From a bacterium (lineage in GTDB: Bacteria; Electryoneota; RPQS01), in assembly GCA_016703065.1 (NCBI GenBank), contig JADJCU010000003.1, forward strand, positions 137,045 through 201,044: DNA of 64,000 bases, given 5' to 3'. Within the stretch, counting starts at the first letter, position 1; each line of letters starts with the position of its first letter. The notes under the pieces are model-generated. The model was not told the DNA's origin. It saw nothing but the letters and a program-made list of their open reading frames with translations, and searched no databases. The translations under genes and the position numbers were made by a program. Of the stretch, positions 33,364 through 62,700 are shown one piece after another.

Positions 33364-33401
33364 AATATTCTGCCAATCCTTCCGAGAAATCGGTGACATA
33401 A

Positions 33402-39453: not shown

Positions 39454-39482
39454 GGGTGGGGAGCCAGAGCGGCTCCCCACCC
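39454..39482 (-). other. intercistronic GC-rich hairpin between the giant gene and the PorV-like gene
   Basis: Perfect 12-bp stem GGGTGGGGAGCC / GGCTCCCCACCC with a 5-nt loop, 12 nt after the giant-gene stop. No U-tract follows. Confidence 0.5.
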
Positions 39483-39494: not shown

Positions 39495-42400
39495 TTAGTT
39501 CGAGGCCTTCTTGTAAGCCACCTTGACGATGTTGTTCATGGTCTGGCCGCTTCCAGAGACCTTCACGTTCGCAAGGTACACACCGTTGGCGACTTCTTCG
39601 CCATTCTCGTTGGTACCGGCCCACGTGATTTCCGTGTTATTGTCAGCCAGCGGGCCGTCGAAGACGTTCTTGACCAGACGACCGGAGAAGTCGTAGATCT
39701 TGATCGTTACGTGCGCGCCGTTTCCACTGCCCGCCTCGATCGGCAGGACGAAGGTCGTATGACCATCTTCCGGCGTGAACGGGTTCGGGTAGTTGTAGGT
39801 TTCGCCGCCCAACGTGATGGCACGGTGACCAACACGCTGACCCCATTCGCCCGTCGCCCGGTTGCCGGCGAGATCGCTGACTTCCGCATGCAGGCTGTAG
39901 TCGCCCGACTCAAGACCTTCGAAGGCCAAGGTCGCGTAACCCGTGAGGCCGTTTCCGGCGATGCTGACGTTCTTTACGCCACCAGCGTTGGTGCCGTCTT
40001 CAGTGGTCAGCCAGATATTGACACTGGCCGGATCCAGACCCACCGTACCGACTTCAGCGAAGTCAACGCGGAAGGTAATCGGTTCGCCGACTGCCAGCGG
40101 ATTCTCATCATCCGACAGCGGCTGTACGTTCGTGAATTCAGGCGCCGCTACGTCAACCGCGTAGACTTGGCTGATCGGTGCCATCGGCGCGCCGCTGGTG
40201 AAGTCACCATTGAGCGAAGCGCGAATGCTGTTCAGACCGGTCAAGTCGAAGTTGGCGCAGTAGGTCGCGGTATCACCGTTGAAGGAGACCGGCGCATCCA
40301 CCACGATCGGGGCATACACCAGTTCACCGTCCACCAGCATCGAGCCTTCCAGAGTCATCGTCACGGTGCTGCGGTCAACCTGGTCGCACTCAAAGTAGGC
40401 TTCGAAGCAATGCGGCATCGCCGACACGTGGAACGGCTCGAGGAAGTAGATGTTGCTCAGGCAGTCGTCGAAGCTGACAACCTGGAAGCTCCACAGCTTG
40501 CTCGTGGTGTTGCAGACATAGTCACAGACCGTCAGGACGGCGGTGTACTGGCCTTCTTCAAGTCCGCCCACCCAGTTGATGAACTGGCCATCAACCTGCG
40601 CGTTCGGCATAAGGTCGGTCCACTGACCGTTATCCTGATTCAGCAGGCGGAATTCGATGCAATCCGGATCGACGCCGCTGTTGCCGTCAAGGCTGGTGAC
40701 GCCGCTCAGTACGTCGCGCCATGCACCAAGATCAAGCTTGGACGTGGAGAACGTGGTCTGGGTCGCGCCCTTGCCACTCTTGGTGTTCATACCAAGGAAA
40801 CCGGTGGTCGGGGCCGTGTTCTTATCCATCATGCTCGAGTTCTCACCCGGCAGGCTCAGGGCGCCGGCGTTTTCATCATCGAAGAAGTGAGCGCTGATCG
40901 TCACGAGCTGGTCGCCATTGACAACGCTGTTCTCCAGCGGGGTCAGGACATGGACAACCGGCGCGGCGTCATCAGCCACCCAGGTCTGCGTGACTTCGCT
41001 CGCCGTACCGTACTGGTCGGTCGCGGTCAGGACGATGCGTACATCGGTCGGGGCTCCGTAGCCGCCGAAGTCACCGAAGGTCGCGTTGCCTTCAACCGTG
41101 AACACCTGGTCGTACACGCTGTTGTTGTATGCCGGGCTGATGTCCATGGTCACGTGCGCCACAAGGTTACGCTCGATGATTGAACCGTCTTCGTCGTACA
41201 GACCGATGAAGTTGGCCACGATGCCGCCGTTGTTCACGTTGGCGCCGTCCATTTCAGAAACCGTGGCTGCGAAGTACAGCGGGCGATCCGGATTCCAGAA
41301 GCCGTTGTACTGGCAGGTCGCGTCTTCGTTCACGATGTAATCAGCAACCGGACCATTGCTCAGCGAACGGAACGTCCACGTCCAAGTCGCGAGGTTGCCG
41401 ACACAGTCTTCAGCGTACGCGTTCACCGTCCAGATACCAGCGATCGGGCTGGTCAGCACGACCTTGGCGCTGGAGAGAGTGCGCTCGATGAAATCTTCCT
41501 GATCTTCGTAGCGGGTCACGTTGCCGCGCGGATCAGCAATCACGAACCAGACGCGCTCGATATTAATACCTGAGCCGTTGTCGTCAAGCGGGTTGGTGAC
41601 TTCGCGGGAAGTGCGACCTTCGTTCTTAGTCGCGGAGGACTTGCCGGTCACGCTGCTCGTCGTTGCGCTGCCCTTAAGCAGGGTCGTCGCATCGCCGCCG
41701 CGCAGCATCAGGCTGCCTTCGCAATCGTCAGTGTAGATAACTTCGACCACCACACCACCGTCGTTCTGGACGCTGTCGCCGTCAGCCGGGTAGTTTGCGG
41801 TCTTCTGCGGTTCGCAACCGTCAGCCGTGTAGCGCTGCGAGGACTGGTTGTAACCGTCAACGTCGCCAGCCGTGAAGTAGATGTTCCGCGTCTCGACGAT
41901 GACCGACAGGCCGGTCTGGCCATCCGGGAAGCTCGTCGACAGCACGAAGTTCACTTCAACTTCATCACGTCCGTCCGGGTTAATCGTCGTCGGGCCGCTG
42001 ATCGGCGTGCTGTCCGGCAAGGTAATCACGCTATAGGTGATACCGTTCGGGGCAATCGGTGCCGATTCAACCGTGCTGACCACGAAGCTGAATTCCTGCG
42101 GATCGGTCGCATTGTACTCAGGATTGAACCAGGTACCGCACTCACCGTCCACGAATTCAACTGCCGGTCCCGGACAATCAACGTGCCACGTCCAAGTGAT
42201 ATTCTGGGTGTCGGTCGTACCGATGTTACCGGCACGGTCAGGCACCGCGATCGTGATCTGGTGATCGCCCGGCATGTAGAACGCATCGGCCGCTTCGCCA
42301 GAAGCTGCACCACCGAGGGTGAACACGAAGTCGTTAAGACCCGGTTGCAGAATCGTGAAGCCCAAACCTTCTGCCGAGGTATCCGCGGCGGTGAAGACGA

Positions 42401-43260
42401 CACCGTCGATCCAGAACTGTACCGTGCTCAGGTCGATACCCGCGGCACCGTAGCAGCAGCGGCCCCAGTCACTGATGGACGCCTGAATGGTCGGACGCTC
42501 GCCGCAGTTGAACACGGCCGGTTCGTAGTTAATCGGGTCTTCGTCATAGCGATCTCTGAAGCCCCAATCCTGGGTCCAGAAGAAGTCGTTGTCATTGTTG
42601 ATACAGTCGATACCGTCCTCGTTGGCCATGTCGTCACCGTCATCATTGATCGGGGCGCCAACCGGCGAGACCGGGGTGATGACCGGCGGAACGATATCCA
42701 CCGTGTAGCGGTAATCTTCCGTTTCGTCGTTGTAGTCACAGACGTTGTTGTAGACATGCCAGTGGGCGCATAGCGTCAGCGGGCAGTCTTCACCGTAGTA
42801 GTAGCCGGTCTCTTCATCGTACCAGTCATAGAAGACGTTGTCAATCAGGCCGTCCCACTGTACGGTGACAGAGGCGCGGTAACCGATCAGCACTTCGTTC
42901 TCCATGATCGGAGTGAAGGTCATGGCTTCGGCAGTGATTTGATGTACGTAGTTGGACTCATAGACTCCGCAATTGGCGAGGTCGAGGTAGACACTGATGG
43001 TGTCGATACCCGACTCACGATCCACGAGGTCCGCCCAGATGGTCGTCTCGACGTCGCCGATGTAGAAGGTCTCGGCATGCGCCGTCGGCGGCGTATTGTC
43101 TACGTAGAAGTTCGTGATGTTAGTCGCACGGTCATCGACGTAGAACTGGATGCTATGGACGCCCTGCGGCAGGCAGCCAAACCACGGCGGGCAGCTGTAG
43201 TAGTTCGGGTTGAATTCAACCGAGAAGATGCCGCTGATGTCGTCATAGTGGACATCGAAG
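39495..43260 (-). CDS. giant secreted modular protein, C-terminal segment ending in a T9SS/FlgD-Ig-type sorting domain
   Basis: The ORF-track ORF is 39495..43532, but its first roughly 90 codons are R/T/S-rich read-in. Protein-like sequence starts at FDVHYDDISGIFSVEFNPNYY (about 43260). The C-terminus reads NYPNPFTPEDGHTTFVL...VTIKIYDFSGRLVKNVF...GVYLANVKV. Confidence 0.85.
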
Positions 43261-46200
43261 TTCGTCGTAGTAGCAGTCTTCGTAGCCGTCGTAGTCTTCC
43301 ATCTCAACCGGCACACCGTCGTTAACGATACGGATACCGTCCAACCAAACGTCCACACGGTCCGGCGTCGGCGGATACTCGCCTTCACCCAGAACCACCC
43401 ACCACTGCGGCGTGCAGTCAACGACTGGCATACCGTTGTAGTTCGGCAGGTCTTCGTAGTAGACCGAGCAGTCGTCGCCGTTGTCGACGCGGACAAACTC
43501 GTCAATCGGGCGAATTGTTGTAATAAAGACACCGAAGCGAGCGCGATCCGGACACACCGACGTCAAGTCTGAAATGTCCCAATCAGGCGTCCACTGGAAG
43601 TCCACCGTACCGTTTTCAAGGTCGCGGTCGTTGTAGGTGATACCCCACTCCTGCCACATACCTTCATACTGGCCGGAAGCATCGCTGGCATCCCAGTTCC
43701 AGTAGGCCACCACGACTTGCCATTCTTCTGCGTTCTCCGGCAACAGGCTGTTGTCGAAGTGCATACGGAACGACGAGGCGGGCTGAACGATGTCAAGCTC
43801 TTCGAGATCGTCGGACTGAATTTCTTCAACCGTCGAAATCAAGGTGTAGTAGTACTGATAGGCCGGTACCAGGCTGTGCGACTGCTCAGGCAAGTACGGC
43901 TGGAACCACATGGAACCGCGCCATCCCGTGCCCCACGCAGGAACTGTGACTTCGAGGACGCCGTCTTCGCTGACCAGCGTACCATTCGAGCCGCCCTGGT
44001 AGTTGGCTTCATGGATGTCCATCGCGTAGGTGACGATCTCGATGAACGTATTGTCACCCTGCGTCACCTTGTTCGAGGTGAAGATCGTGACACGGCCATC
44101 TTCGTCTTCCAATTGGCACGGCAGCGTATTCGACGGCAACTCACCGCCGTAGTAGGACGAACCGGCTTCAGGCTCGATGCAAACGACACCGGCATTGATC
44201 AAGCAGTTTTCGGTGTAGTCTTCGAGCGTTGCGAGGACCCACGGCTGTTCTTCACCGTTGCTCGGGACGCGTACCCAATCCGGCGCGTAGATCTGGACTT
44301 CTTCCGTGACCGTCACATCCGTACGGCGCCAGACTGGCGGGTTCGGATCGATGTTACCGGTTTCATCCCAGGCCACCGCACGGAACCAGGCATTCGCCGG
44401 GTACTCGTTGAACTCAAGCGTAACCTGCCACAGGTGCCAAGCCAGCCATTCGTTGCACTGGTCAACACGCGTGTTAATCGCATCCTGCAACGGAATCCAT
44501 GTTTGACCTTGGTTAGTCGAGACCTGGAACTGCACCTGCGAGGTCCAGTTCGGGTCGCAATCGTCGGTCACAGCGTACGGGTAGTCATCGCAACCGAATT
44601 CGTTGTCATCATCGTAACCGACGATGCAAGCGCGCTGGTACTGCGAATCTTCAATGTACACTTGGATCGTGTGCTCACTGCAGTTGCCTGCCTCATCCCA
44701 CGCGACCACAACAAGTGTGTACCAGGAGTTTGGCGTCAGCGCGGTAGTTGCCAGTTGTGCCGACCACAGCGGACCTTGCGAGTCACAACTGATCAGGTCG
44801 GGGCTGGTGTCTTCTTCACCGTAGAAGCAGACCTGTGCGATATTGCTGTTGCCGCCCTGACCGAAGACGTCTTCGGCGGTGGCAACCATATTGATGACAT
44901 CACCCCACGGGATAACCGTTTCGCTCGGCGTCATGTCACCGTTCACGTTGGTGAACATCACATCCGGCGGGCAGTTATCGACGCGCACCGTGTCAGCGAA
45001 CAGCACGTAGGCGATGTTCGATTCCGGAATCGCGTTGTCGCTCAGGGCCGCACGCAGGCTGATCGTGCCGCAGGCGTCCCACTCGCTAGTGAAGTACGTA
45101 TAGACATCCCACGAGTAGACCCAATTGCCGCTGACTCCGTTGTCCTGATAGGCATAGCCCCCCGGGTACCAGAATCCTTCGTCATCGGGCGACTCTGCCC
45201 ACTTCCACTCAAACCAGACGGTGTCAAGACCGGCATCCGTCTGCTGGTTGTTGAAGTGGACCCAGATGTCGTCGGGTTCATTCCATGTCGCTATCGGCGA
45301 CTGCTCCAGCGCGCAGTAACCACCGATCAGGCCATGCGAAGCAGGTCCATTCTCGGTAAGGTCATACGGCAGGCTGTGGTCGATGATGATGTTACGGCAA
45401 TCCGTGGCACGGGTCACAAGGTCACCACCAAGGTCGGCGGAACCGATCGCACATATCTGGCCCGGGCCTTCCGGCAGCGTCGTGACATCCCAGTATCCCG
45501 GACAGCTCGACCAGTCAGTCTGGCCAACGTTGCCCTGAACCGTGGTGATTTCGTGCGTGTCGCCTTCCGCAGTCACGTAGATGAAGCGGACATAATCCAG
45601 ATACGGTTCGGATTCGGCGTAGATACAGAGATTCGTTCCGTGAACATGCGGCGTGCCTTCAACGTCGTAGAAGTCGTTGATGGCGTAGATCGAGATGTTG
45701 GCTTCTTCATCGACCACCGTACCGGACCAACTGAATACGATCTCAGTCTGGTTGCAGTAATCCCAGCCGATCACGGCGAATTCATAAGTCCAGCCAACCA
45801 CGAGGTTCGTCGGAACCACCCAGTTGACACTGTACGGGAAGTTGTCATCCGCACCGAAGGAGGTCCAGTCGCCCGGATCACCCGTATGACGGTAGTAGAA
45901 CTCCACGTAACGCAGACCGAAGTTATCCGAAGCATTCGCGAGGAACGTATGCTCCGCGCCGCGCTCCAACTCGACCACCGGCGTCTGCGTCGGATCTTCC
46001 GTGAGGAATACCGAGGTAATCGTCGCGACCGGCGCTTCGTTATCTACGTTGACCATCAGAGTAGCGTGTTCAGGAGCGCCTTCAACACCACCGGCAAGGC
46101 TGCCGTCCATGTTGCCGAAATCGTCTTCCGCGAACGCGCCGATATAATAGGTGCCATTCAGCAGTTCGGTGTTCCACGTGCCTTCAACCGGGCCGAATGA

Positions 46201-49200
46201 GCCGGCGTCGCCTTCGACGCGCTCAATCACCGTCCACGGACCGGCGCTGCCCTGCTCAATGAAGGCGAACGTCACTGCGACGACATCCTGGTAGCTGACG
46301 TTGGCCGTCAGAACCACGTTACCGCTCAGGAAGATCACCGAGGAGTCCGGCGTGCAGTCCGTCGTCGTCACAAGGTTGTCCGCCATCGGGGCGTTATGGT
46401 CAACCGCTTGGAAGCGCTTGACATAACCCTGCGTGATCAACGACTGCCACTTCTCTTCCCACGTCGTGCCTTCACCGTAGTTCAAGAACTGCGTCCACGT
46501 GAGTTCGTTACCTGACTGATCTGTTGTCAGAACTGCGATATCATACCAGACACCGGGTTGCGGCGCCGGGCAATCGTTCGACCAGAGATATGTGTTGTCC
46601 TGACTGAACGGCGCAGTTGAATCATCGCCGAGGTTGCACCAGCTCCACATTTCGAGCGGGTGATCATCGGCACGCTTGATGAACCACATCGCACCGTAAG
46701 CATCTGCGGCGACTTCGTCAGCGCAGGCACCAAGGGTTACGACACTGTAGCGTTCGAGGCTGTCCGGAATCTGTTCTTCCGTCCAGTTGGCACAAGTCTC
46801 AAGCTGGTCAATGTGTGTATCGTTGTCCCAGACGAACACCTTGGCCATCGGCGCAATCACGTCGAAGGAAACAGTGTAGGTCTCGGTCTCTTCAAGGTTA
46901 CCGCACTCATCTTCCGCCCACGTGCGGACCTGAACATCGCCGGCCAAACCGGAGACATCCCAGACCACTGACCAGAAGATGTCATGATCCATACCGTCCC
47001 ACCACGGATTCGGCTCGCTGCCGTCCCACGGGCACGGTACTTCATCTGTTTCATCAACGCCGATTTCAAACCAGGTATTTCCGCCATCCGTGCTGTATTC
47101 GAAGTACATGCGCTGAATGTCGCCCGGATTCGTCGGCCAGTTGTCGCCGATCATCGAGAAGGCTTGCAGCCAGATGTCATGCGCATCGCCTAGGGCGCCA
47201 ACGCTGACAGTATGCGTCTGCTGATCAATGATCCACAGACCCTCCACACCCTGATCGCGATCATCGTCGCACCACGGCTGTTCGGTCAGACCGACCGACC
47301 ACAGCATCGAGGCCGGCGGCGTCGTATCGAAGATGTGAACATTGATCACGTGGCCTTCATCAAAGGCTTCCATGACGCGCTCCACATCGAGGTCGCCATT
47401 GCCCCAACGATCCTGAACGATCGGCACAATGTGCAACGAGTCGCCACATGTAATACCGTCAAGCCACAGTTCGACGTAGTGCGGGTTGCACGAGCTCGGG
47501 ATGTAGCCACACTGGGTCCATGCATCGGCTTGGTTCAGGTGCCAGATGTTCTTGCACCAAACCTGAACGATGTTATTCGTTTGAGTTGAGTCATCCGGGG
47601 TCAGACCGTCAGTCCAGGCAACCCACAGGTTGGCAGGTTGCTCGTCACCCGAGTTGATTTCGAACCAGACATCGTCACCGGGGGCAACCGGCTCGCCGTT
47701 GACTTCGATCACGTCGGCCACAGGCGCGCCATGATCAACGTCCACCCAGAACTCGTCGAGCATTTCGAGCGGTTCGATCTGGCAGATAGCATCGTGCGCA
47801 CGGGCCCAGACGCGGTAGCGACCACTCGGGTACAGGGCAACGCCTTCATCCGTCGTGTCGGCAAGGTGCCAGTAGATACACCAGTTCGGGTTGTTGTGCG
47901 AATCGAACGTCGGGTCCCACCACGTCGTGTCGACTGCGGTGGCCGTGACGCCGGCTTCTTCACTCTCGACGTACAGGACCATGTACCATACATCCTGTTC
48001 GTAGACCGGCAACACGCCGCATATCTGGACGCTCTGGTCACCACCGATTTCGGTCGTGCCGTCGAGAATCTCGTCCGTGATCGTGTTGCTTTCACCCTCG
48101 GTACAATCGTAACCCGTGTAGGTCAGGGACTGGATATCCGTGTGTTCCGGAAGCGTCGGGAAGCAGTCGATGCAAACAAGGCTCGTCGATTCTTCGTTGC
48201 AATCGGTCGTGACGATCACGCTGTCAACATTGCCCTGGCAATCCGAGAAGTGCACCGTGAAGGTGTAGCAACCGTAGTCCAGCGCAACGATCTGCTGTTG
48301 ACCGTCGCCCTCGCCTTCACCGATGTAGGCGTAGCGGTTCTCCATCCAGTACTGACACAGGTCTCCGTCAAAGTCGAACGTCCATTCGTCGTCGTCAAGA
48401 CGAGTCATGTCGCCGAACTCGTAATAGTAGTTTCCGTCTTCGCGCACCGCAGTCAGCCAGACGTTGTTCTCGTTGAACTCGCCGGACAACATATCCGGAT
48501 CGAAAGTCATCGTCACGACGGCAGAACCCGGCTCGATATCGAAGCGGCAACGGTCTCCGCAAGCGGTCTCAACCGGCAACGTACCCGCAGCCACGCCCGT
48601 ACCTGTCGGCGGAATCGCGTCGACATACAGGATCACGGCGTCGGACGTGTCATTACCGTTGTAGTCTTCGACGATCGCGCGAATCCAGAAGGCTTCCTGA
48701 TCGCCCACGTCTTCCGGCTGCGGATAGAACATGAAGCACTCAGTCGTGTCGCCATTCAGGCCGTTATTGATCGGATCCCAAATGGTGTTCACGTTGCGCC
48801 AGCCGGACACGTTGTCACCGTTGACTTCAGCATACTGAACAGTAATCGAAGCCAGACCGGTGTCAATGTTGGTCGGGGCAAAGACCACGCGAACGCAATA
48901 CGGATCACCGTCATGGATGTACAGCGAGGAATCAACTGTGCACGACGACGCAACTTCTTCAAGCGAGCTGGTTACATCGAGAATCTCGATGCGCGCAGCA
49001 GGCTGAATATCGTTCAGGCGGATCGTGATGTAGCACACATCGTTATCACACAGGTCGTCATTCCAGACCGTGTCGATGGCGATAACGCGCAACTGATACC
49101 AGCCTTCCGGATCGTTGTTCGTCTCTTCCATGTAGGCCAACAGGTCCCACGTTGCCGTGATCGTGTTGCCTTCGTGACGCACCGTATCATCGCTGAGCGT

Positions 49201-55200: not shown

Positions 55201-58200
55201 GTTGTTGTCGAGCAGGACGGCCACGGTCAGGACGCTGTCCCAATCCATATTGTAGCTGGCGTTCTGCAGAACCAGAACACTGTCCACGCCGCCTTCATCG
55301 CCGTAACCCGGCAATTCCGTCTCGATTGCGAAGTCACCCCACGCTACGGATGACAGGTAGGTCGCAGTGAAGGCTTCACCCGAACCGTACTCGACATCCA
55401 TATAATAGCCGTGCGAACCACCCAGACCAGTCTGGCGATGGCTCTTAACCGGGACGGTGACAATCTGACCGCAATCCATCGTCTGCGGATCACTGACAAT
55501 CCACTTCGCCACGAGGCGCAGGTCGCCATCGCAATCACGCAGTGTATCCCAGTATGCCGGAACCGGATCGGCCATGTTCGGCTCGGTGCCATAGACCGGG
55601 GCGCCGCCGAACATTGTCGGCGCGGGCGTCCAGGCAGTCCAGGCGTATGCCGGACCAAACTGCGTCAGATCAGCAAGAACAGAGTCAATACGGAGCGTAT
55701 CTTCGAATCCGTTGAACAGGCTGTCCATCCAGACCCAGACTTCGATCGCGGCGTCACCTGAGCCGTTGAACCAGCCCGGTGCGCAGGAGTCGACGCCCAT
55801 AACCCAGACGGAATCGATATCCGGCACAGTCGTATCAGCGCCGGAGAACTCAAAGATGTTGTAATGCGAACCCATATTGCAGCCCGCGTCGGTCACGTAG
55901 ATCCACAGCGAATCATACGTGCCTTCGGCGCCGATCAGATGGCACGCGTAGTCGAAGTCGATACGCAGAGTATCTGTTGACTGCGACAGGGTGTCATTCG
56001 GATCAGCATAGACACCCGACGGCGTCCAACCCCAGTACGCGCGGTAGTTGTCACCACCAAGGTGCACAACTTCGTGCGCCGGAATTGAGTCGTAGGCGTC
56101 CTGCATGACCGGGTCACACCAGAAGCGGCTGAAGTCAGCCCACACATTTTCCGGTGCCGAAACGAGGTCATTCACATAACCGTTGATGTCGGCGTACACG
56201 TGGACATTCGAGTCACCCGGCGTCACATACGCACGGATCGAGTCGTCACCTATTGTATAGATGAAGTCAACAATCGGCGGCAGCGAATCATAGATGGCGA
56301 TCGGCCAGGCAATGGTGTCAACGTTACCCGCCCAGTCCATCAGGGCGATGTCAACAAAAATGGTGTCGCCATTGTTGTATTCAACAAGCAGCGGAATATC
56401 TTGGGCCACAAATGCGTCGTCAATATCGCACTCACCGAAGCCCCAGAAGTAGCATACCGAGTCATTGATACCGTCGGTCATCATTGGGATATCGTCGAAC
56501 GACTCCGTCCAACCGAGGCTGGGATCAAACGCAGACAGGTCGGCCCACTGCGATTCAACAAGGCCGAGGCTCGAGTCATGATCCGGATCAACGACAAGCA
56601 ACTTGAAGCTAACCAGCGAACCCGGACCGAGGTACGGAAGCTCGTGATCATCGAGGAACACGTTGCCTGAAAAGTAATCAAACAGAGCCGAGTCGCACTC
56701 GCAATACGCTGCCGAGAAATCAATCGTCGGCGGTACGCAGTCGCTGCAGAAGTCAAGCGTATCCTGCAGATACAGCTCGCGGTCGTGATGACCGATCAAG
56801 TCATGAGCTGCGTGGAAGCGGAACTCGGGTTCAATCGTATTGATACAGAAGAACTGATCATCCGGCATGAACGTCCAGTACGCATAGGCCGTAATCGGGC
56901 CGGGCGCGTAGAGGATTTCTAGCGTCCAATCATTTATGAAACCTTCATCGAGTCCAGCGTCATCATAGACAAGCAGTGTCCAATCACCATTGATTGGCTC
57001 GCCGTCAAAGTCAGACAAATTTCCTTCCGGTCGGAACGATCCAGTAAACGGTGCGCTGCCCGCCGTGATGTCGGTTGCAGCTTCGTCATCAAACACCGTG
57101 TTGATATAGTCCGGATCGGCGGAACCATTATTCGTTGACAATTCGACATACGTACCCGACGGGCTGATCAGGTAGATATCCAGATCACCGTCATATGTAT
57201 GCTCGATGTCATTGATTGTAACATTGACGTCAAGGGCAACACCGCCATTCGGTTCATTGATTTCTGCAATGGATGTTGCAAAATCAGTGATAGCCACGGG
57301 ATCACCGACATAGACTTCAACCGAAGTCAGGTTCGGAATAACCACGCTGTCCGGCTCCACGCTGTCCATCAGCGCATCCTGCAGGATCACCGACAGGTCG
57401 GCCCAGATTTGCGTCGTGTCAACACCGATACCGCGTCCGTCTTCGCAATCAATACCCCAATCTGTAACGACACCGACGAGGGTCATTTCCTGCTCGGGAT
57501 CGACACAGACGAAGTCGCCTTCCATAGCGTCGACGTTGACGCCGAGGCTATCATAGAGCATCCAGTCCGTCCAAATCGGTTCGTTAACGTCAACCTGGAC
57601 GCATTCGTCGAAGTTCTTTTCAGCTTCAACGCCGCCCCACGTGACGAAACGAATCTGGAAGTCGAGGGTGTCTCCGTCGCACCAAATGGTAGCCAGATCC
57701 GACGAGTCGGCACGGAGGTACCAGTAGTACTTGCGGGCCCAGCCCAGTTCGTTACCGAACATGTCGGTAAAGATGAACCACTCGGGGTCGACATAGTCCG
57801 GCACCAGCCACGGGTTCGGGTCGTCCGTGATCATCTGGAAGTTACCTTCGGCCACCCGGATCGAATCCGCATGTTCACCCGGTACGCAATCATTGATCTC
57901 GCACGTTTCGATAATCGTGGCGCAAACCGTGATGTTCGTATCTTCCGGCGCGATCCAACCCATCAAGCTGTCCGGTCCAAAGACGTTCGGACAACCTGCC
58001 GCCCACGGGTCGCAGGGGATGAGGTTTACGCAGAAAGTCGTGTCTTCAAAGCTGTCAAATTCAAAAGCGTCCGTGAACGCGGGCTCGTTATAGCGACCCG
58101 GGTTACCACCCTGATCCCAAGCGCCGCGAACCACGAAGCATGAATTATAGATGAATGTGTCGACGGGCAGGTTGGTAATCGTACCAACGAGCGTGTAGGC

Positions 58201-61200
58201 CCATTCATTATTCGGCAGACTGTCGGGCGTAACCTCTAATAGGTTAATGGTCACATACGTGCCCGGCGCCGCACCTTCCATCAGCAGACCTTCCGTGCTG
58301 TCCACGAGCGAAATCTGCCAATTTCCGGTTTCTACCCAGTCACCGATTCCGTTCGGGCCGTAGCCGGAACCATCGCTGTTCGGGTATGCATCTTCATCGA
58401 AGTGAACCTGTTCATCAACGCGCAGCGTAATGCTGAAGGTATCGCCTTCGGCATAACGATAGCCGCAGTCGCCGTTCCAGCCGTTGTTGTTAACGGTTGC
58501 CGTGCTATGCGTCTCGGGATCACGAGCCCCCGGGGCGATGAGTGTCCACTCGAGGAAATTCGGGTTGTTGTTGTCAACGTCAATCGATCCATAGGTGGTA
58601 TCGCAAACGAGGAAGATGGTCTCGTCCTCATCCAAAGCCGAGTCACCGTCAATCGTCCAAACCTTGACAATAACCGTATCCTGATCCGTGATCGGAACGA
58701 GCATGATACTGTCGGTACCGGGGTTGATGAACCACGTTCCGTTCCACATATAGCGGAACTCCATGAGCGCATCAAGCAGGTAATCCGGATCGTCGATATT
58801 CTCGAGTCGTCCGTCATAGACCGAGTTGTCTGGCGGATCCTGACAGGACGCCGATGAACCCAGATCGTCGCAGGTCGTCTTGAAGAGCGGCTTGCGAACC
58901 AAACGGCGACGGTGATCGGATTCACCCGGCTGAATGGTCGGATTCATGAATTCGATCACGAGCGTATCGTGATAGACGTCATCGGTCCAATCCTGCGTGG
59001 CATCGGCCGGATCAAAATTGTCCACCGCCGTTATCGACAGAGTGTCGAGCAGCAGGCGGACCCAGATCGAGTCGTGAACGTCGTCATGGGCAGGATTCGT
59101 GATAGCGTCATAGGCGCCGCCCGAGTCAACCGATCCGGGCGAGAAGGCATTCCACAACGGCATCTCACCGAACAGGTTGAAATCGGCAAACGGACCATTT
59201 TCTGAACCGGCCACGAAGTCAAGAGTGTCCGGATCGAGGAAGTAAAACTCCATCGGACCAACAATGCGCGGACAGCGGCTTTCGCCAAGCAGCGCAATAT
59301 TGTTGCAGGTGAGAGTCGTGTTGTCAGCTTCGGAGGTATTGTCATCCGAGTCATACGCTATCGCGCGAATGATTCCATAATCTCCGGAGTTAATACAGTC
59401 AGCTTCGTAGTCGTCAATCTGATAGTCGTTCTCGCTAACATCCAGCGTGTCGACCATCTCAAGTTGGACTTCAATGCAACCCCGCCAAATCTTGAACGGC
59501 GGAGCCAGACTGACAAGAATCGGATCGTTCGCCCAGACGGTATCATAGTCCGGCGAGACGGTCTCGATATTGCGAATACACGAGAAGTCAAACATGGCCT
59601 TCACGGCGCTCGTGTCCGTACGCATATAGACACACAGCGACTCGCCCGCGAAGAAGTTCATATTGCAGGCGTTCAGCTCGTTGACCACGTTGACGGAGTC
59701 AATCGCCGGTCCAAGGCCGTTCACCCAAATGCAAACTTGTTCTTCGAGATACACGTTACCGGCATTGTCCTGCAATTCGAGGCGCAGGCAATAGAGGCCG
59801 TCGGGCACAGGATCTCCGCCAGGACCGGAACGATCCCATTCGACGGAAATCGTATCACGCGAATCAGTCGAGTTGAAGCTGAAGTCGACAGGGTAGCAAT
59901 CGCGGTCGTGCGAACCACCGCTCGTGCCGTTCGACTCATCAATATAGAAGGAATCGGCGGCAAAAGGCCACAGCCCTTGCGTGTAGATCGAGTCAATACG
60001 AACCGTGTAGCAGAGGTTTTCTTCGAGACAGGTGTCAATCAGGCCCTGCGTGAAGAAACGGCGCGCGCGGAACTGGAAGACCGGATCGTCATCACCATTG
60101 ACCCACAGATAAGGATCGGTGACGCTGGCCGCCGGATAGTCCGGGCCAATCGGCAGAACTGGTCCGTTAAGCGTATCAAGGTCAAAGTCAACAATCGTCT
60201 GCGGGAAACACGAGTCAACAACTACATATAGGTTGTTGAGCTGAGTGTAGCCCTCGAGGATGTTCGTCGTATGGTCATGGTCAGAGCCCAGGACGGCATT
60301 ACAACCACCGGCGTCCATATAACGGGCTTCGGTGATACCGACGTGCATACCCCACTGGCAGTAGTCAGCCAGGTAGCCGAAATCGGCAGAGGAGTCAGTT
60401 TCGCCATCCTTACCATACCAAGTAAAGCACGCCGAGCCGGGAATACCGAGGTCAGGCACGCGCCATTCCCAGTGCACGGAGTCAGCGCTGGGCTCACCGG
60501 TCGGATGGTAGTAGTCGAGCAAGGTGATCGGCGAACCGGTCGGCGTTTCGTCGTCATCGTCAGGAATCACGCGCACGTCGAAACCAATGAGGTACACCTT
60601 GGTCAGTACGTCTAAGGTAACCGACGGATCATAGTCTTCCTCAACATTATCCAAATACCAACGGACCGAATCCGGCGAAATGTTCGTCTCAACCGTTGCC
60701 AACGCGCTGTCATAAGGAGAGAAGCGCTGATTGCAGTAGTTCGGGTCGTCCGTATCGAGCGCCCAGTAGGTCTCATTGCCCGGCAGTTCCGGGGCAATGT
60801 TATCCAAGCAGACGTCGCATCCTTCAACATCATTGGCGATATCTTCATAGCCCCACTCAACGGCGTTCGACGGGTTACCCGCATCGTCGATTGAGTAGAC
60901 AAAGATATTCGGCGGGTCGCCGGGGCCACCAATTTCGTCAAACAGACAGAGCTCGATCGAATCCCAATGCATAGAGTCGATCGGAATATCAATGTACATG
61001 AGGTCGTTGTCTTCGCCCGGGTCAGGCAGGCTGCCGAAGCGGCCCGACACCCAGACTTCGTCCAGCGACAACAGGTCTACGCTGTCTTCGTTCATCGGGA
61101 ACAGATAACCCGAGGGCACAAGTTCGCTCAGGTCAACGGCCATCCACTGCGCATCAAAGTTTGGCACGGTTTGGTCGCAGTCGACACGGTCCGGCTCATA

Positions 61201-62346
61201 ACTATACGTCATGTCGAGCGGATCACCGTCGCAGTTCGTCGGGAACTTGCCCTGCGCCTCTTCGGTCGTACTCATCCAGATACGCAGGAAGTCGCCACAA
61301 CCGGCGATCGTATCATTGTCCAAATAGTTCATCTGGACGATCTCACACGAGTCGACACAGAGAATATCAAGTTCCGGCGGCAGGTTGTCGACCGGGCGCT
61401 TACAGTACACGGTATCGACCGCGACCGCGTCATCCGGCCAGACTTCACCGCCTGCGGCATCCCACGTGAAGTAGACAAGGAAAATCGTATCCGCGCGGCA
61501 ACCGCCGAATTCGTTCTCCATGGTACCCGGGGCCACCGTAATCGTGTCGGCCGAACCCTTCCAGTTCACGGAACCGGTACCGTCCAGCGCGCCGGCATCC
61601 CAAACCAGGGTATCGCCGCCGGCGAGTTCGTCAATCGTCAGAGCGATATCGGCATCAAGGTAGACGCGGTCGCCAATGGCCACCAGGTTGTCGCCCATGA
61701 ATCCACCCACTTCGCGGAAGCCGATATAGGCACAACCTGACTGGAGTTCACAGGTGGTGATCCAGTTGTACGGGTTGTCCGCACAGACGGTCGTTCCGTT
61801 GGGCAGCGGGGCGTTGTCCCAGCCAAGCCACGTGATACCGAAGAACAGCTCCGTACCCACGGGGTAATCTGTACCTTCCGGATGGAAATCCAGCGTCGCG
61901 ACAACCAAACAGCTGTCGAACGACGTGCCCCATTGCCCACTTGGAATCGGCACCCCGGCCAATCCCATGTGGTCCGTGACAACCCAGTCCATCCGGTAGA
62001 TGAACGGTCCAGGGCCCGACGGGCAGATCAGCGAGACCTGCGGGGCGCTGCCGAGGATGGAACCGAGGTCGGGGAGCCCGCTGTTAGTCGGGTCGGTCGG
62101 GTCTAAGCCAACCGCTACCGAATCACAATAGCGCGCAGAAAACGCTGCGCGTACCGTGACAATAAGCCCGTCGCCGAGTTCGTCGATGATACCGTTGATC
62201 GGCACGGGGCCGAGGGTATCTTCATAGCAAATGATGGTTGCCGGCTCGGTCGCATTGATCTGCGCCTGCGCCGTTTGCGGCAGCAGCGTCACAATCAGCG
62301 CCGTAAGCGCGGTGGCCAGCCACACAAAAAGAGTCTTGGACCTCAT
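43243..62346 (-). CDS. giant secreted modular protein, N-terminal segment (about 6,370 aa) with signal peptide and two P-domains
   Basis: ATG 62346 is preceded by AGGAGA (8-nt spacer) and encodes MRSKTLFVWLATALTALIVTLLPQTAQAQ. The ORF is uninterrupted down to 43243. Sequence is acidic and Trp/Tyr/Cys-rich throughout. The ORF track extends upstream to 62565, which I judge to be non-coding leader. Confidence 0.85.
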   Translation of the reverse strand: MRSKTLFVWLATALTALIVTLLPQTAQAQINATEPATIICYEDTLGPVPINGIIDELGDGLIVTVRAAFSARYCDSVAVGLDPTDPTNSGLPDLGSILGSAPQVSLICPSGPGPFIYRMDWVVTDHMGLAGVPIPSGQWGTSFDSCLVVATLDFHPEGTDYPVGTELFFGITWLGWDNAPLPNGTTVCADNPYNWITTCELQSGCAYIGFREVGGFMGDNLVAIGDRVYLDADIALTIDELAGGDTLVWDAGALDGTGSVNWKGSADTITVAPGTMENEFGGCRADTIFLVYFTWDAAGGEVWPDDAVAVDTVYCKRPVDNLPPELDILCVDSCEIVQMNYLDNDTIAGCGDFLRIWMSTTEEAQGKFPTNCDGDPLDMTYSYEPDRVDCDQTVPNFDAQWMAVDLSELVPSGYLFPMNEDSVDLLSLDEVWVSGRFGSLPDPGEDNDLMYIDIPIDSMHWDSIELCLFDEIGGPGDPPNIFVYSIDDAGNPSNAVEWGYEDIANDVEGCDVCLDNIAPELPGNETYWALDTDDPNYCNQRFSPYDSALATVETNISPDSVRWYLDNVEEDYDPSVTLDVLTKVYLIGFDVRVIPDDDDETPTGSPITLLDYYHPTGEPSADSVHWEWRVPDLGIPGSACFTWYGKDGETDSSADFGYLADYCQWGMHVGITEARYMDAGGCNAVLGSDHDHTTNILEGYTQLNNLYVVVDSCFPQTIVDFDLDTLNGPVLPIGPDYPAASVTDPYLWVNGDDDPVFQFRARRFFTQGLIDTCLEENLCYTVRIDSIYTQGLWPFAADSFYIDESNGTSGGSHDRDCYPVDFSFNSTDSRDTISVEWDRSGPGGDPVPDGLYCLRLELQDNAGNVYLEEQVCIWVNGLGPAIDSVNVVNELNACNMNFFAGESLCVYMRTDTSAVKAMFDFSCIRNIETVSPDYDTVWANDPILVSLAPPFKIWRGCIEVQLEMVDTLDVSENDYQIDDYEADCINSGDYGIIRAIAYDSDDNTSEADNTTLTCNNIALLGESRCPRIVGPMEFYFLDPDTLDFVAGSENGPFADFNLFGEMPLWNAFSPGSVDSGGAYDAITNPAHDDVHDSIWVRLLLDTLSITAVDNFDPADATQDWTDDVYHDTLVIEFMNPTIQPGESDHRRRLVRKPLFKTTCDDLGSSASCQDPPDNSVYDGRLENIDDPDYLLDALMEFRYMWNGTWFINPGTDSIMLVPITDQDTVIVKVWTIDGDSALDEDETIFLVCDTTYGSIDVDNNNPNFLEWTLIAPGARDPETHSTATVNNNGWNGDCGYRYAEGDTFSITLRVDEQVHFDEDAYPNSDGSGYGPNGIGDWVETGNWQISLVDSTEGLLMEGAAPGTYVTINLLEVTPDSLPNNEWAYTLVGTITNLPVDTFIYNSCFVVRGAWDQGGNPGRYNEPAFTDAFEFDSFEDTTFCVNLIPCDPWAAGCPNVFGPDSLMGWIAPEDTNITVCATIIETCEINDCVPGEHADSIRVAEGNFQMITDDPNPWLVPDYVDPEWFIFTDMFGNELGWARKYYWYLRADSSDLATIWCDGDTLDFQIRFVTWGGVEAEKNFDECVQVDVNEPIWTDWMLYDSLGVNVDAMEGDFVCVDPEQEMTLVGVVTDWGIDCEDGRGIGVDTTQIWADLSVILQDALMDSVEPDSVVIPNLTSVEVYVGDPVAITDFATSIAEINEPNGGVALDVNVTINDIEHTYDGDLDIYLISPSGTYVELSTNNGSADPDYINTVFDDEAATDITAGSAPFTGSFRPEGNLSDFDGEPINGDWTLLVYDDAGLDEGFINDWTLEILYAPGPITAYAYWTFMPDDQFFCINTIEPEFRFHAAHDLIGHHDRELYLQDTLDFCSDCVPPTIDFSAAYCECDSALFDYFSGNVFLDDHELPYLGPGSLVSFKLLVVDPDHDSSLGLVESQWADLSAFDPSLGWTESFDDIPMMTDGINDSVCYFWGFGECDIDDAFVAQDIPLLVEYNNGDTIFVDIALMDWAGNVDTIAWPIAIYDSLPPIVDFIYTIGDDSIRAYVTPGDSNVHVYADINGYVNDLVSAPENVWADFSRFWCDPVMQDAYDSIPAHEVVHLGGDNYRAYWGWTPSGVYADPNDTLSQSTDTLRIDFDYACHLIGAEGTYDSLWIYVTDAGCNMGSHYNIFEFSGADTTVPDIDSVWVMGVDSCAPGWFNGSGDAAIEVWVWMDSLFNGFEDTLRIDSVLADLTQFGPAYAWTAWTPAPTMFGGAPVYGTEPNMADPVPAYWDTLRDCDGDLRLVAKWIVSDPQTMDCGQIVTVPVKSHRQTGLGGSHGYYMDVEYGSGEAFTATYLSSVAWGDFAIETELPGYGDEGGVDSVLVLQNASYNMDWDSVLTVAVLLDNNCITIPGDTVYDWSGVWIDFTGFLDDPKQYADVIYYNYNDQNIDSLVFIIPLYDDMGAGDLFNEFILSDRYWFGLHLSDTSCGMPEEFCNAADLDSVISFTIQNWNEPNPGMILLCDSTTVAGSDSDFVDQFNMNLWNNEKVSPDSSGSAFVTSPLENLYKVWRNDDGAYWVWYSHEDQNLTRFFVFIEDTVLQSDDIDNDEDGATDEIGEGVDFYTSDLRINDDFPQVGSVDSMNVGGMWVNYLWFADNFSEGRYNVKAFASDIYGHRDSLACEGEYALTFFEDETCPHGNALYFTYGEGDTIVEQCWNGVFVNHSYVDQYTADDSVKIGSNFDSLALWLNDPLILDDGMPGSGVDNDTTTVDSANFNNGLASEIRLYDPLGVLVPFVQVYEPSTGYATNAAPVMLVDPTGVALESHPDGLYHIQVVARDNMENECTYDWYFTLDRTCPSIDEFYVAHPGTIVPQTDLLTSWDYVELRAIIDDELDGVAGVAFDYAFDANRDDIVDAYSYWQTANIWVAGGSAEDGDPEWPFATYWNIRNLTWNSEDTLGLPPVDPENCTNTWFVRVHTWDKFGNYCVDTITVSITDDIAPLAYISSVNGDTTAQGALLPCFEPNVDTDSTIELRAFDFQGEVYDPLPGDTTFAVFSYNDPEADVQIPYSSTVEAEINVTDNFTVQDVNIVIEDLAIDYPFTLRIELESPAATVVTLFDHNYGWYAPGLVGTIFDDEAARPVEAGWSPFDGGYRPMDVLSAFDGENSVGTWTLRIYEEYGYSEGELNSWGLVLTDRFIGGLATYQWFDLAKGMFQYKAFDAPFGEYEPGNTNPDSGWVTIMTPGQDSVTYRQPDTEDFVTQWNIAGIQSGQYNLRFLTADVCDNSDWINTPVVTVRIECDTTAPMALICYPTEDMCVTNLRCDTTVWVPVQSTAPIMSDVDSIAYFFIDSLSVPGLAIHQFIGGTTSPDSVVDGWAFYHSTAWNTDNLLSGWYSLYAVAYDDAGLFDNDPIISRVFVDNTMPAVTECWIGDYNGDLFEPIGTVGEGEYFYLRANAADNIGLDRDCGIYGVQFQFQDRYGNWQDLQDVADWNEAWGADVYVYPYTGLVTYPDANGYYELSIYFNDFGNSPLDSVRFRAYAIDNVSEEGFGDNNMQGDYNRDCNLDRDLECGTEICCMAIEIRDAIPSGTNLWCFNHAWFQWGLPQYSAPTMPIYDGDKYSTCNYQTPIDTLLLVANVHEQVEDEWLMYFKYYRADGTTDTFDVPNDYSMNPTIPRFQTVNGDSAIALESTWDSVYVVWPGARAWLDSADAADGLVFSRWDFVAYVEDLTGNQEYWYNQNSCYIYTFCPPNTPITHATYVTNDPNDPDGRIRVELEEVPWQTEETDTIEVIYNRTTDQGSNDPEALVQFYVDEDAIRNCHGDSVNVFNVELWQLDDEGALQSLCDEGQLVDFDYFDDFMAWDQYPPDGSDGLYELGLYFDNTYPPGNYNFAVVVNWVTPYTPWQYDTLNEGDSDCDRIIEESDSTRIDLVVRIVNVNEPQVVYCYPPYGDVCGAHNTVPLSANDVSDPSYFSGEITQVAFERWNGTAWVPVIDPVTGVNYDTNPNNANVRFEFDERELPGMAGWYYERQSNSEYSWYADRDLFPDVAVYVWENDQFYPMSESSDGFWTTNVSLSTGDPESCYDYSFVIDANDNGLWEGPEIDRWVDDPRNIDWDEQDPIAYDRCDSDQINSVFGGEAAYSTICMCEYVINFDSRAVGDGHHEFRTVVTWYDGTAYHVIENPAPGDSLHVFFVDNEEPVATHDIVAEDFWLNGGRCTDADETEFVTDIQPIDGNYNLVVEDICAVIYQVSMTSNPYADSSWRNVDTVFSNDDMGWTDAWSSFWIAYDPTADNIDNDGDGLVDETYDVMAGDQIGEENTLFLSRSVVTDHCGNTYVTAAESIWVDVSEPRACITLVGDVEPGVDGNDVVVVPDSRDLAIVATNQEYATFDQSILGVFQYRTLNPIGEWTNIQADTLSDDTVRHEGNTITATWDLLAYMEETNNDPEGWYQLRVIAIDTVWNDDLCDNDVCYITIRLNDIQPAARIEILDVTSSLEEVASSCTVDSSLYIHDGDPYCVRVVFAPTNIDTGLASITVQYAEVNGDNVSGWRNVNTIWDPINNGLNGDTTECFMFYPQPEDVGDQEAFWIRAIVEDYNGNDTSDAVILYVDAIPPTGTGVAAGTLPVETACGDRCRFDIEPGSAVVTMTFDPDMLSGEFNENNVWLTAVREDGNYYYEFGDMTRLDDDEWTFDFDGDLCQYWMENRYAYIGEGEGDGQQQIVALDYGCYTFTVHFSDCQGNVDSVIVTTDCNEESTSLVCIDCFPTLPEHTDIQSLTYTGYDCTEGESNTITDEILDGTTEIGGDQSVQICGVLPVYEQDVWYMVLYVESEEAGVTATAVDTTWWDPTFDSHNNPNWCIYWHLADTTDEGVALYPSGRYRVWARAHDAICQIEPLEMLDEFWVDVDHGAPVADVIEVNGEPVAPGDDVWFEINSGDEQPANLWVAWTDGLTPDDSTQTNNIVQVWCKNIWHLNQADAWTQCGYIPSSCNPHYVELWLDGITCGDSLHIVPIVQDRWGNGDLDVERVMEAFDEGHVINVHIFDTTPPASMLWSVGLTEQPWCDDDRDQGVEGLWIIDQQTHTVSVGALGDAHDIWLQAFSMIGDNWPTNPGDIQRMYFEYSTDGGNTWFEIGVDETDEVPCPWDGSEPNPWWDGMDHDIFWSVVWDVSGLAGDVQVRTWAEDECGNLEETETYTVSFDVIAPMAKVFVWDNDTHIDQLETCANWTEEQIPDSLERYSVVTLGACADEVAADAYGAMWFIKRADDHPLEMWSWCNLGDDSTAPFSQDNTYLWSNDCPAPQPGVWYDIAVLTTDQSGNELTWTQFLNYGEGTTWEEKWQSLITQGYVKRFQAVDHNAPMADNLVTTTDCTPDSSVIFLSGNVVLTANVSYQDVVAVTFAFIEQGSAGPWTVIERVEGDAGSFGPVEGTWNTELLNGTYYIGAFAEDDFGNMDGSLAGGVEGAPEHATLMVNVDNEAPVATITSVFLTEDPTQTPVVELERGAEHTFLANASDNFGLRYVEFYYRHTGDPGDWTSFGADDNFPYSVNWVVPTNLVVGWTYEFAVIGWDYCNQTEIVFSWSGTVVDEEANISIYAINDFYDVEGTPHVHGTNLCIYAESEPYLDYVRFIYVTAEGDTHEITTVQGNVGQTDWSSCPGYWDVTTLPEGPGQICAIGSADLGGDLVTRATDCRNIIIDHSLPYDLTENGPASHGLIGGYCALEQSPIATWNEPDDIWVHFNNQQTDAGLDTVWFEWKWAESPDDEGFWYPGGYAYQDNGVSGNWVYSWDVYTYFTSEWDACGTISLRAALSDNAIPESNIAYVLFADTVRVDNCPPDVMFTNVNGDMTPSETVIPWGDVINMVATAEDVFGQGGNSNIAQVCFYGEEDTSPDLISCDSQGPLWSAQLATTALTPNSWYTLVVVAWDEAGNCSEHTIQVYIEDSQYQRACIVGYDDDNEFGCDDYPYAVTDDCDPNWTSQVQFQVSTNQGQTWIPLQDAINTRVDQCNEWLAWHLWQVTLEFNEYPANAWFRAVAWDETGNIDPNPPVWRRTDVTVTEEVQIYAPDWVRVPSNGEEQPWVLATLEDYTENCLINAGVVCIEPEAGSSYYGGELPSNTLPCQLEDEDGRVTIFTSNKVTQGDNTFIEIVTYAMDIHEANYQGGSNGTLVSEDGVLEVTVPAWGTGWRGSMWFQPYLPEQSHSLVPAYQYYYTLISTVEEIQSDDLEELDIVQPASSFRMHFDNSLLPENAEEWQVVVAYWNWDASDASGQYEGMWQEWGITYNDRDLENGTVDFQWTPDWDISDLTSVCPDRARFGVFITTIRPIDEFVRVDNGDDCSVYYEDLPNYNGMPVVDCTPQWWVVLGEGEYPPTPDRVDVWLDGIRIVNDGVPVEMEDYDGYEDCYYDELRCPL

Positions 62347-62700
62347 TCTGTGGTTCTCCTGAATATGGGAAATCTTCAAAGTCCGGTGGGAATCAGATGC
62401 GGCGGAAGCACACGCCGAAAGCGCGTCAGGTGAGATAATCACCGTGTGCGCATTGTGGATAACTTGCGTAGTCATGAACTGCTTGTTCAAGTCTGAAATA
62501 AGGCTAGAATCTGGCATGTACGCGTCCGCTTTGTTAATCAATCCAGCTTGAGGAAAAAAACACAAGCCCCCTGAACCACAGCATATTCTGCATGCTGCGA
62601 GTGATCTCAGGTTGCTTGGGGGGTTTGCTGGAAATCAAGTACTTAGTAACTGGGCTGTGACCTAAGTTCAAAAAAGTTCTATACTGGTCAAAGTTCCCCA

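Follow-up and report, generated by a model that had tools for sequence, protein, structure and literature searches.

A gene of about 7,617 codons for a giant surface protein, probably exported by type IX secretion, with an adjoining barrel-OmpA gene, in a 64-kb stretch of an Electryoneota genome

Two long open reading frames (ORFs) that run in the same direction and overlap raise the question of whether they encode two proteins or are the halves of one very large gene, and, in the latter case, what kind of protein such a gene would make. Both lie in a 64,000-nucleotide stretch of bacterial DNA, hereafter the window (GTDB lineage Bacteria; Electryoneota; RPQS01; contig JADJCU010000003.1 of assembly GCA_016703065.1, positions 137,045 to 201,044). 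ORFs 39495..43532 (minus strand, 1,345 aa) and 43243..62565 (minus strand, 6,440 aa) share 290 nt, just as a first-pass annotation of this DNA had described. The reading that we favour, and consider probable, is that they form one gene for a surface fibre or adhesin of about 7,617 amino acids, which would be exported through a type IX secretion system (T9SS) and tethered to the cell wall by the barrel protein encoded beside it, and that the break in frame is a consensus error.

The gene and the signals that delimit it are as follows.

39495 to 62346, minus strand: giant gene, a single coding sequence some 7,617 codons long, whose frame the assembly breaks at 43258/43259.
62355 to 62360, minus strand: ribosome-binding site AGGAGA, read directly from the DNA eight nt 5' of the ATG and kept in relatives L001 and L002.
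43258 to 43259, minus strand: frame break, with two nt fewer than relatives L006, L004 and L008 (gaa c--ttc gat) in a DNA alignment, and with tblastn pieces abutting there.

From the ATG at 62346, which a ribosome-binding site precedes as had been proposed, to the stop at 39495 there are 22,852 nt. The protein-like reading changes frame within 43250-43269: the first frame is left at MEDYDGYEDCYYDE, after which it reads LRCPL and a stop, and the next frame resumes as FDVHYDDISGIFSVEF. The first-pass annotation had suggested that removing one nucleotide joins the frames, and indeed a one-base deletion anywhere in 43250-43269 opens a reading frame of 7,616 aa, free of stops, between the ATG and 39495; the suggestion of an extra base in the window does not hold, however, as two nt are missing by comparison with the three closest relatives (L006, L004 and L008), which read ctgttc or atcttt at this point. 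With the two nt restored, the merged protein has 7,617 aa and reads DCYYDELFDVHYDD across the junction. The protein of L006 matches the window in exactly two tblastn pieces, one in frame -2 (58719..43258, 73.2% identity) and the other in frame -3 (43259..39498, 71.0% identity). Because these pieces abut at 43258/43259 and are similar in identity, there is a single break and no decay 3' of the junction.

The relatives of this protein are few, and they are whole. When residues 3201-7440 of the merged protein were searched against 5.8 billion protein clusters, the window's own product and only five relatives were returned, four of them full length (7,217-7,379 aa); two of these four cover the whole query, junction included, and in the two that were read from end to end a signal peptide of the same kind opens the protein and the same sorting tail closes it. 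Scanning genomes, one for each species, yielded five loci, and two further gene calls, of 7,419 aa (L009) and 7,442 aa, lie 5' of the partner gene described below. In the three closest relatives the frame runs without interruption through the junction to the tail, and at least ten relatives are collinear and uninterrupted, the full-length ones measuring 7,217-7,586 aa. The merged window protein and five relatives, of which one is partial, align collinearly with pairwise identities of 49-82%, and between orthologues identity is about 50% over the body of some 6,500 aa. None of the orthologues examined is split in two and, because the locus is collinear with its relatives, it is not a chimera of assembly. 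Judged from these sequences, the two ORFs are parts of one gene, as the first-pass annotation had claimed, with orthologues that carry the same signal peptide and C-terminal domain (CTD).

The break in frame is not the only damage to genes in this window, which also holds the following lesions.

About 38757 and about 38364, minus strand: one-nt and two-nt deletions in the PorV::OmpA gene, the next gene 3' of the giant gene; a conserved protein is still encoded by all three frame segments.
About 26440: frame change in a DegT aminotransferase gene.
About 19650: second sugar dehydrogenase gene (a paralogue), split over two frames.
32620 to 32622: nonsense codon TAA in an NDP-sugar dehydrogenase gene, where homologues have GAA.
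About 3765: frame change in a protease gene (904..3780), whose sorting tail goes on in another frame.

With the giant gene included, the count comes to six frameshifts plus one nonsense codon, about one lesion per 9 kb, all in genes whose counterparts in relatives are intact. Because so many lesions of this kind share one window and the relatives are intact, the break at 43258/43259 is most likely an assembly or consensus error, a two-nt deletion that appears peculiar to this assembly and would have no biological meaning. The accession series is one that we take to be that of long-read metagenome-assembled genomes from activated sludge, an origin that would agree with such lesions. With at least seven coding lesions in 64 kb the assembly is error-prone, and pseudogene or frameshift calls made from it deserve distrust.

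If the frameshift were real, the locus would be a pseudogene or split gene of recent date, making a secreted protein of 6,367 aa with no sorting domain and leaving its last 1,250 codons untranslated. The deposited record, on a 545,695-bp contig, annotates precisely such an upstream product (MBK6766231.1, 6,367 aa, "proprotein convertase P-domain-containing protein"), and the missing bases lie outside any long homopolymer. Nevertheless, the 1,255 codons 3' of the break are free of stops and conserved like the 5' part (71% against 73% identity to L006), while the adjoining gene has two deletions and three further frameshifts and a nonsense codon lie in conserved genes of the window. Since independent loss of so many genes within 64 kb is unlikely, we favour a poor consensus and regard a real frameshift as distinctly unlikely, although it weighs against our reading that the break may be a genuine, very recent mutation that inactivates the gene in this population. 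The frames would also be joined in translation by programmed +1 ribosomal frameshifting at CUU-CGA, and the 3' frame is indeed +1 relative to the 5' frame, with CUU, the codon on which ribosomes slip in prfB, within the shift site, but ten relatives are in frame, the site has neither a Shine-Dalgarno-like stimulator nor a stop codon, the window has many other frame errors and, because no orthologue needs a frameshift, this mechanism is very unlikely, with next to no chance of being correct. An alternative genetic code was also rejected, the sole in-frame TAA aligning to GAA in homologues and the giant gene having no in-frame stops.

What, then, does one gene across both ORFs encode? Its two ends carry export signals.

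62263 to 62346, minus strand: predicted Sec signal peptide (aa 1-28) with cleavage motif AQA before Q, from sequence features and conservation in orthologues.
39522 to 39791, minus strand: T9SS type-A C-terminal sorting domain (FlgD-Ig-like), from FlgD_ig and TIGR04183 matches.

At the N-terminus (MRSKTLFVWLATALTALIVTLLPQTAQA) there are a basic n-region, a hydrophobic core, with hydrophobicity peaking at residues 7-22, and the AQA cleavage motif, and a signal peptide of the same kind is found in orthologues P0002 and P0004. With n-, h- and c-regions present and conserved in this way, the classical signal peptide claimed in the first pass appears sound. At the other end the match to FlgD_ig reaches 29.9 bits (cut-off 27) and that to TIGR04183, the sorting domain of type-A T9SS cargo, 24.1 bits (cut-off 23), stopping nine residues short of the stop, whereas Pfam Por_Secre_tail gives 18.1 bits, under its cut-off of 27. 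The same region matches the CTD parts of NCBIfam models for PorU, PorZ and M6-like T9SS proteins, and the motifs YPNPF...IKIYD..G..V...GVYLA.V...KV are kept in all orthologues. Two models over cut-off and motifs kept in orthologues bear out the T9SS sorting tail that had been noticed by eye, and the protein would qualify as type-A T9SS cargo, marginally by score. A giant adhesin of the RTX or type I secreted kind was rejected, as the protein has no match to HemolysinCabind or related families and its C-terminal end is a T9SS CTD. The T9SS-related genes of the window itself are one PorV/PorQ-family gene and a second CTD-bearing protein, the protease, only.

Between these signals lies a mostly unique body of about 6,500 aa with scattered, diverged Ig modules, followed by an Ig stalk of about 1,000 aa that adjoins the CTD. 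The features that could be placed along this chain are the following.

56917 to 57297, minus strand: P_proprotein (P-domain, PF01483) insert 1, aa ~1684-1810.
52858 to 53238, minus strand: P_proprotein (P-domain, PF01483) insert 2, aa ~3037-3163.
53707 to 54129, minus strand: most recognisable internal Big_13/cadherin-like Ig module, aa ~2740-2880, from an exhaustive profile search.
39792 to 42608, minus strand: Big_13-like Ig stalk next to the CTD, aa ~6580-7520, from tile profiles, hhalign repeats of about 140 aa and Pfam.
54553 to 54618, minus strand: block DDIDNDEDGxxDExGEGVDFYT, with DxDxDG, invariant in five orthologues, a putative Ca2+-binding loop by its motif only.
49522 to 49578, minus strand: second invariant block, DNIDNDGDGLVDET, with DxDxDG, from conservation.

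The merged protein has a mass of 846 kDa, an isoelectric point (pI) of about 4.05 and a net charge of about -1,047, and contains 11.1% D, 5.9% E, 0.66% K, 3.4% W, 4.8% Y and 2.3% C, a composition that agrees with its first description as acidic, rich in Asp, Glu, Trp, Tyr and Cys, and poor in Lys. As pI and Lys content are ordinary in the window's cytoplasmic proteins, this acidity is not proteome-wide, and acidity of the halophile type was rejected. Lys makes up 0.6% of the protease (904-3830, plus strand) and 0.5% of a beta-helix protein (7486-9333, minus strand), against 2-8% in the cytoplasmic proteins; the depletion (0.5-0.7%) is common to all three predicted secreted proteins of the window and looks secretome-wide.

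About 85% of the chain is unique sequence conserved among orthologues only, and some 5,500 aa have no detectable domain. In a self-BLAST the two P-domains, which are 46% identical to each other and together score 85.8 bits with PF01483, are the sole clear internal repeats, in line with the earlier view that the protein is not built of near-identical tandem repeats. Fainter repeats of 100-140 aa emerge within 3200-6000 and 6690-7550 when a profile of five aligned orthologues is compared with itself in hhalign. Pfam finds Big_13 (34.9 bits) and, weakly, Big_7 and Big_3_2 towards the C-terminus, and scanning 56 overlapping tiles of 260 aa added weak Big_7, Big_13 and Big_3_x matches and nothing else.

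To place the internal modules we relied on an exhaustive HMMER search, in which a profile of aa 1850-3010 was run against 1.84 billion representative proteins at E<=0.001. It matched 642 proteins, only seven of which span the region; these are family members or their fragments and include the 7,586-aa orthologue. Among the other 635 proteins, the 143 non-family ones that were listed all match the module at aa ~2740-2880 only, up to 35 times each, and the five of these that were scanned by Pfam are all Big_13/Cadherin/Big_3_3 tandem-repeat proteins. Tile profiles of the orthologues were then searched against these 143 independent proteins with Ig repeats and, for control, against a reversed database. 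Big_13-like matches fell at ~780-900, 2740-2880, 5811-5950 and 6371-6510 and continuously over 6580-7560, and the reversed database gave none. An independent Big_13-type hidden Markov model (HMM), made from two repeat proteins, recognised only one module, again at aa ~2740-2880 (15.1 bits); an HMM anchored on the protein's own D..GN segments was discarded as circular. The D..GN module signature occurs 21 times, against 4.0 +/- 2.0 in shuffled sequences. Of the earlier statement that no RTX, Bap or cadherin-type repeats stand out, the absence of RTX therefore stands, whereas the last ~1,000 aa and several internal modules resemble Big_13 and cadherin repeats, and the stalk is a tandem array of Big_13-like modules.

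The scaffold is marked by strongly conserved cysteines, 116 of 176 (66%) being invariant as compared with 30% for all positions and 48% for Trp, which comes next; together with the invariant DxDxDG blocks, these hint at disulfides and Ca2+. Accessory inserts sit at fixed points of this scaffold and differ by lineage. Among the aligned relatives the P-domains occur in the window and L006 only, the other aligned orthologues having nothing there, and the 7,419-aa orthologue of L009 also lists P_proprotein. A vWA domain is inserted in P0002 and P0003, which form one lineage, and an insert of 145 aa to which no domain is assigned occurs in P0005 and P0006 and was also seen in the sequences of P0007 and P0008. 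The lineage of P0005-P0008 has a duplicated DNDGDG block as well. The P-domains of the window protein and the vWA domain of P0002 and P0003 are candidate ligand-binding domains. The public record's name, which implies a proprotein convertase or subtilase, was rejected: such a protein would have a peptidase S8 domain ahead of the P-domain, but no peptidase domain was matched, only the two P_proprotein copies, and these are lineage-specific inserts that most orthologues lack.

No catalytic family was matched in Pfam or NCBIfam, and profiles of three regions that together make up about 70% of the protein drew no meaningful relative from the PDB, so that the earlier claim of no recognisable catalytic domain stands. 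The N-terminal 2,700 aa have no assignable fold by PDB profile search, by tile profiles or by AlphaFold2, with a predicted local distance difference test score (pLDDT) of about 31. The body could nonetheless hold unrecognised catalytic or toxin modules, which would make the protein a giant secreted enzyme or effector in place of a passive fibre. A stretch of ~5,500 aa that is well conserved and yet without a detectable domain is what such a protein might show, as are invariant polar blocks such as ARYMDAGGCN..LGSDHD and GGSHGYYMDVEYG, and AlphaFold2 scores near 30 leave room for such folds. Besides the lack of catalytic families and PDB relatives, however, the D..GN and VD..P signatures recur, weak internal profile similarity extends over much of the chain, and the composition is like that of Ca2+-binding Ig arrays. 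We consider an enzyme or effector unlikely.

The reading of the protein as a tethered fibre draws on the genes that follow it.

37950 to 39389, minus strand: partner gene, for an outer-membrane barrel of the PorV/PorQ family joined to an OmpA peptidoglycan-binding domain, broken in the window by its one-nt and two-nt deletions.
35558 to 36910, minus strand: third gene, an FG-GAP repeat (beta-propeller) protein (FG-GAP 164 bits) with an N-terminal signal or anchor sequence.

The partner gene, of about 480 aa, is immediately 3' of the giant gene in seven of the seven loci with a visible flank. In an intact orthologue, residues 31-298 match NF033709 PorV_fam at 119.8 bits (cut-off 90) and the last 100 residues match the OmpA peptidoglycan-binding domain PF00691 at 76.8 bits. 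Its scores with the equivalog models PorV (49, cut-off 250), PorQ (60, cut-off 220) and PorV2 (91, cut-off 325) are so far under threshold that we place it in a distinct PorV/PorQ subfamily, and it has no match to any PorP/SprF model. The PorV::OmpA fusion forms about 65 protein clusters at >=60% identity, two of which were sampled and both of which adjoin a giant gene (the 7,419-aa and 7,442-aa gene calls). The FG-GAP gene comes next after the partner in all loci whose flank reaches that far. Giant gene, PorV/PorQ-barrel::OmpA gene and FG-GAP propeller gene are thus a conserved cassette.

We propose that Sec takes the giant protein to the periplasm and that the T9SS then carries it over the outer membrane by means of its CTD. 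There it would be kept on the cell as a very long fibre, stiffened by Ca2+ and disulfides, with the Ig stalk nearest the cell and the unique region pointing outwards. The PorV::OmpA barrel would act as a dedicated shuttle or anchor, its OmpA domain tying the fibre to peptidoglycan within one polypeptide, a task that PorP and PorE share between them for type-B cargo. Because the accessory inserts (P-domains, vWA, the 145-aa domain) differ between lineages, they suggest ligand binding, and the fibre may thus serve in adhesion to particles, flocs or other cells.

Several points weigh against this proposal. The adhesin function is argued from analogy, and so is the pairing of CTD and barrel; for type-A CTDs, moreover, the general PorV is the reported shuttle (PMC12618676). 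The score of the type-A CTD lies barely over its cut-off (24.1 against 23 bits), and the core T9SS genes sprA/sov, porK-N and porU are absent from the window, the rest of the genome not having been searched. The beta-sandwich nature of about 70% of the chain would follow from transitive, weak profile similarity and motifs, and the AlphaFold2 models of aa 29-1200 (six-sequence alignment, mean pLDDT 31.3) and of aa 2285-2680 (five sequences, mean pLDDT 29.7) are unusable. The DxDxDG motif is not enriched overall, with two copies observed against 0.9 expected. For these parts taken jointly, that is, a self-contained anchoring module in which the barrel::OmpA protein captures the CTD and bolts an 850-kDa fibre to the wall, with a body that may hold new folds and a leader terminator (see below) that may gate expression, our confidence is low, and the combination is offered tentatively.

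Surface proteins of giant size that use the T9SS and have a barrel partner of their own are already known. Cognate PorP-like barrels, encoded beside it, hold type-B cargo: SprF binds SprB, and the cargo PG1035 is in one complex with PorP and the peptidoglycan-binding PorE (PMC9143113). Type-A CTDs, for their part, are said to use the general PorV, and cognate shuttles are encoded beside their cargo (PMC12618676). The C-terminal domain of PorE has been reported with a peptidoglycan fragment (PMC7192894). Like the giant protein, SprB of Flavobacterium johnsoniae has thousands of residues, a signal peptide, a T9SS CTD and a barrel gene, sprF, immediately 3', and the barrel is proposed to hold its cargo on the surface (PMC9143113, PMC12618676). 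SprB, however, has a type-B CTD and SprB repeats, whereas the giant protein has a type-A-like CTD and neither SprB feature; SprF is PorP-like, whereas the partner here is of the PorV/PorQ family and OmpA-fused, and the giant body is mostly non-repetitive.

These likenesses would also suit a motility adhesin that is moved along the cell surface for gliding. SprB, at about 6,500 aa, is of similar size, and T9SS export and a dedicated barrel gene placed as sprF is for sprB point the same way. Yet no SprB repeat and no type-B CTD (TIGR04131) was detected at E<=0.1, CHU_C reaches 20.2 bits under a cut-off of 27, the partner is not PorP/SprF-like, and there are no gld or spr genes in the window. A peptidoglycan-binding domain in the partner argues, furthermore, for a fixed anchor, unfit for an adhesin that travels. 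The chance that the giant protein is an SprB-like gliding adhesin seems slim to us.

As a wall-tethered fibre, the giant protein invites comparison with three other systems. In PorE-PorP-PG1035 of Porphyromonas gingivalis a cargo, a barrel and an OmpA-like peptidoglycan binder make up one anchoring unit (PMC9143113), and the cassette would supply the same three parts; there PorP and PorE are separate and the cargo is type B, whereas here barrel and OmpA are one polypeptide and the cargo is type-A-like. Type-A cargo of the gingipain kind, attached to anionic lipopolysaccharide (A-LPS) via PorV, PorU and PorZ, has the same C-terminal TIGR04183/FlgD-Ig-like domain and motifs, but is typically 10-50 times smaller and uses the general PorV, whereas here a specialised second PorV-family gene travels with the cargo gene. 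Fibrillar adhesins with Ig repeats (Big_13, BapA, LapA and SiiE types) are likewise acidic, with Ca2+-type motifs, D..GN / VD..P Ig modules and a stalk. Such adhesins have many near-identical repeats and mostly use type I secretion, whereas the giant protein lacks an RTX or type I secretion signal and is about 85% unique sequence. What is new in this locus is the pairing of a type-A-like CTD with a specialised barrel of the PorV family, the fusion of barrel and OmpA, and a largely non-repetitive, orphan body.

Elements that may bear on expression lie on either side of the giant gene.

62701 to 62729, minus strand: sigma-70-like promoter TTGACA-17-TATATT, with 11 of 12 consensus matches, about 350 nt 5' of the ATG.
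62553 to 62618, minus strand: leader hairpin followed by TTGTGTTTTTTTC (TTTGTGTTTTTTTCC), from a minimum-energy fold about 130 nt 3' of the promoter; a candidate attenuator or terminator, or small-RNA end.
39454 to 39482, minus strand: GC-rich hairpin just past the stop (GGGTGGGGAGCC..GGCTCCCCACCC), kept in relatives; a candidate partial terminator or stabiliser.

L001 and L002 have the promoter block letter for letter, and their proteins share only about 50% identity with that of the window. The leader hairpin and its T-run are kept in three lineages (L001 9650-9830, L002 9655-9830 and the window), with some compensatory pairs; with a fold z-score of -1.3 and three sequences only this is tentative, and no Rfam family matched at E<=1. 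The element could be an attenuator or a small RNA. The hairpin past the stop is retained in seven relatives, where stem sequences differ and pairing is kept; it has no T-run and was not called in the window by a simple terminator scan. Between it and the start of PorV::OmpA (interval 39390-39482, minus strand), six lineages (the window, L004, L006, L008, L009 and L011) share a stretch of about 40 nt (TTACTTGAGAATAGCCGATAGGACAGGAGGAAGGGAT) without a difference, which is far more conserved than the flanking coding DNA.

Beyond the cassette, most loci have a cluster for an acidic amino-sugar polysaccharide after the FG-GAP gene; in the window it spans 19022-33399 (minus strand) and it is syntenic in most relatives. 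Its genes encode an NDP-sugar dehydrogenase, a UbiA-family prenyltransferase, a beta-helix protein, a TviC-like epimerase, DegT, a WbaP-like initiating transferase, heptose-pathway enzymes and a 467-aa protein with a faint FemAB/GNAT-like match. An assignment to the Wbp/Vim linking-sugar pathway was tried (against PMC7468200 and NCBIfam) and rejected, the genes being generic and none being assigned to VimA, VimE, WbpB or WbpD; that the cluster makes a glycan for anchoring T9SS cargo is conceivable, if speculative, and has no specific family matches behind it. Polyamine genes lie upstream of the giant gene. At 11939-13816 (minus strand) a MoxR-type AAA ATPase gene stands beside one for a DUF58/vWA protein, a common pairing that is apparently unrelated.

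We found no literature that joins KSB1 with T9SS or giant proteins with T9SS. The giant protein adds a large block of conserved "dark" sequence, with only a handful of relatives among 1.84 billion representative proteins, and offers a good test case for structure prediction and for the roles of giant surface proteins in uncultured relatives whose records carry the label KSB1 or Calditrichaeota. Should the cassette work in the way proposed, the logic of the cognate shuttle would not be confined to type-B T9SS cargo. A barrel and a peptidoglycan anchor could then also be fused into one protein, which would provide a simple model for how huge fibres are secured outside Bacteroidota.

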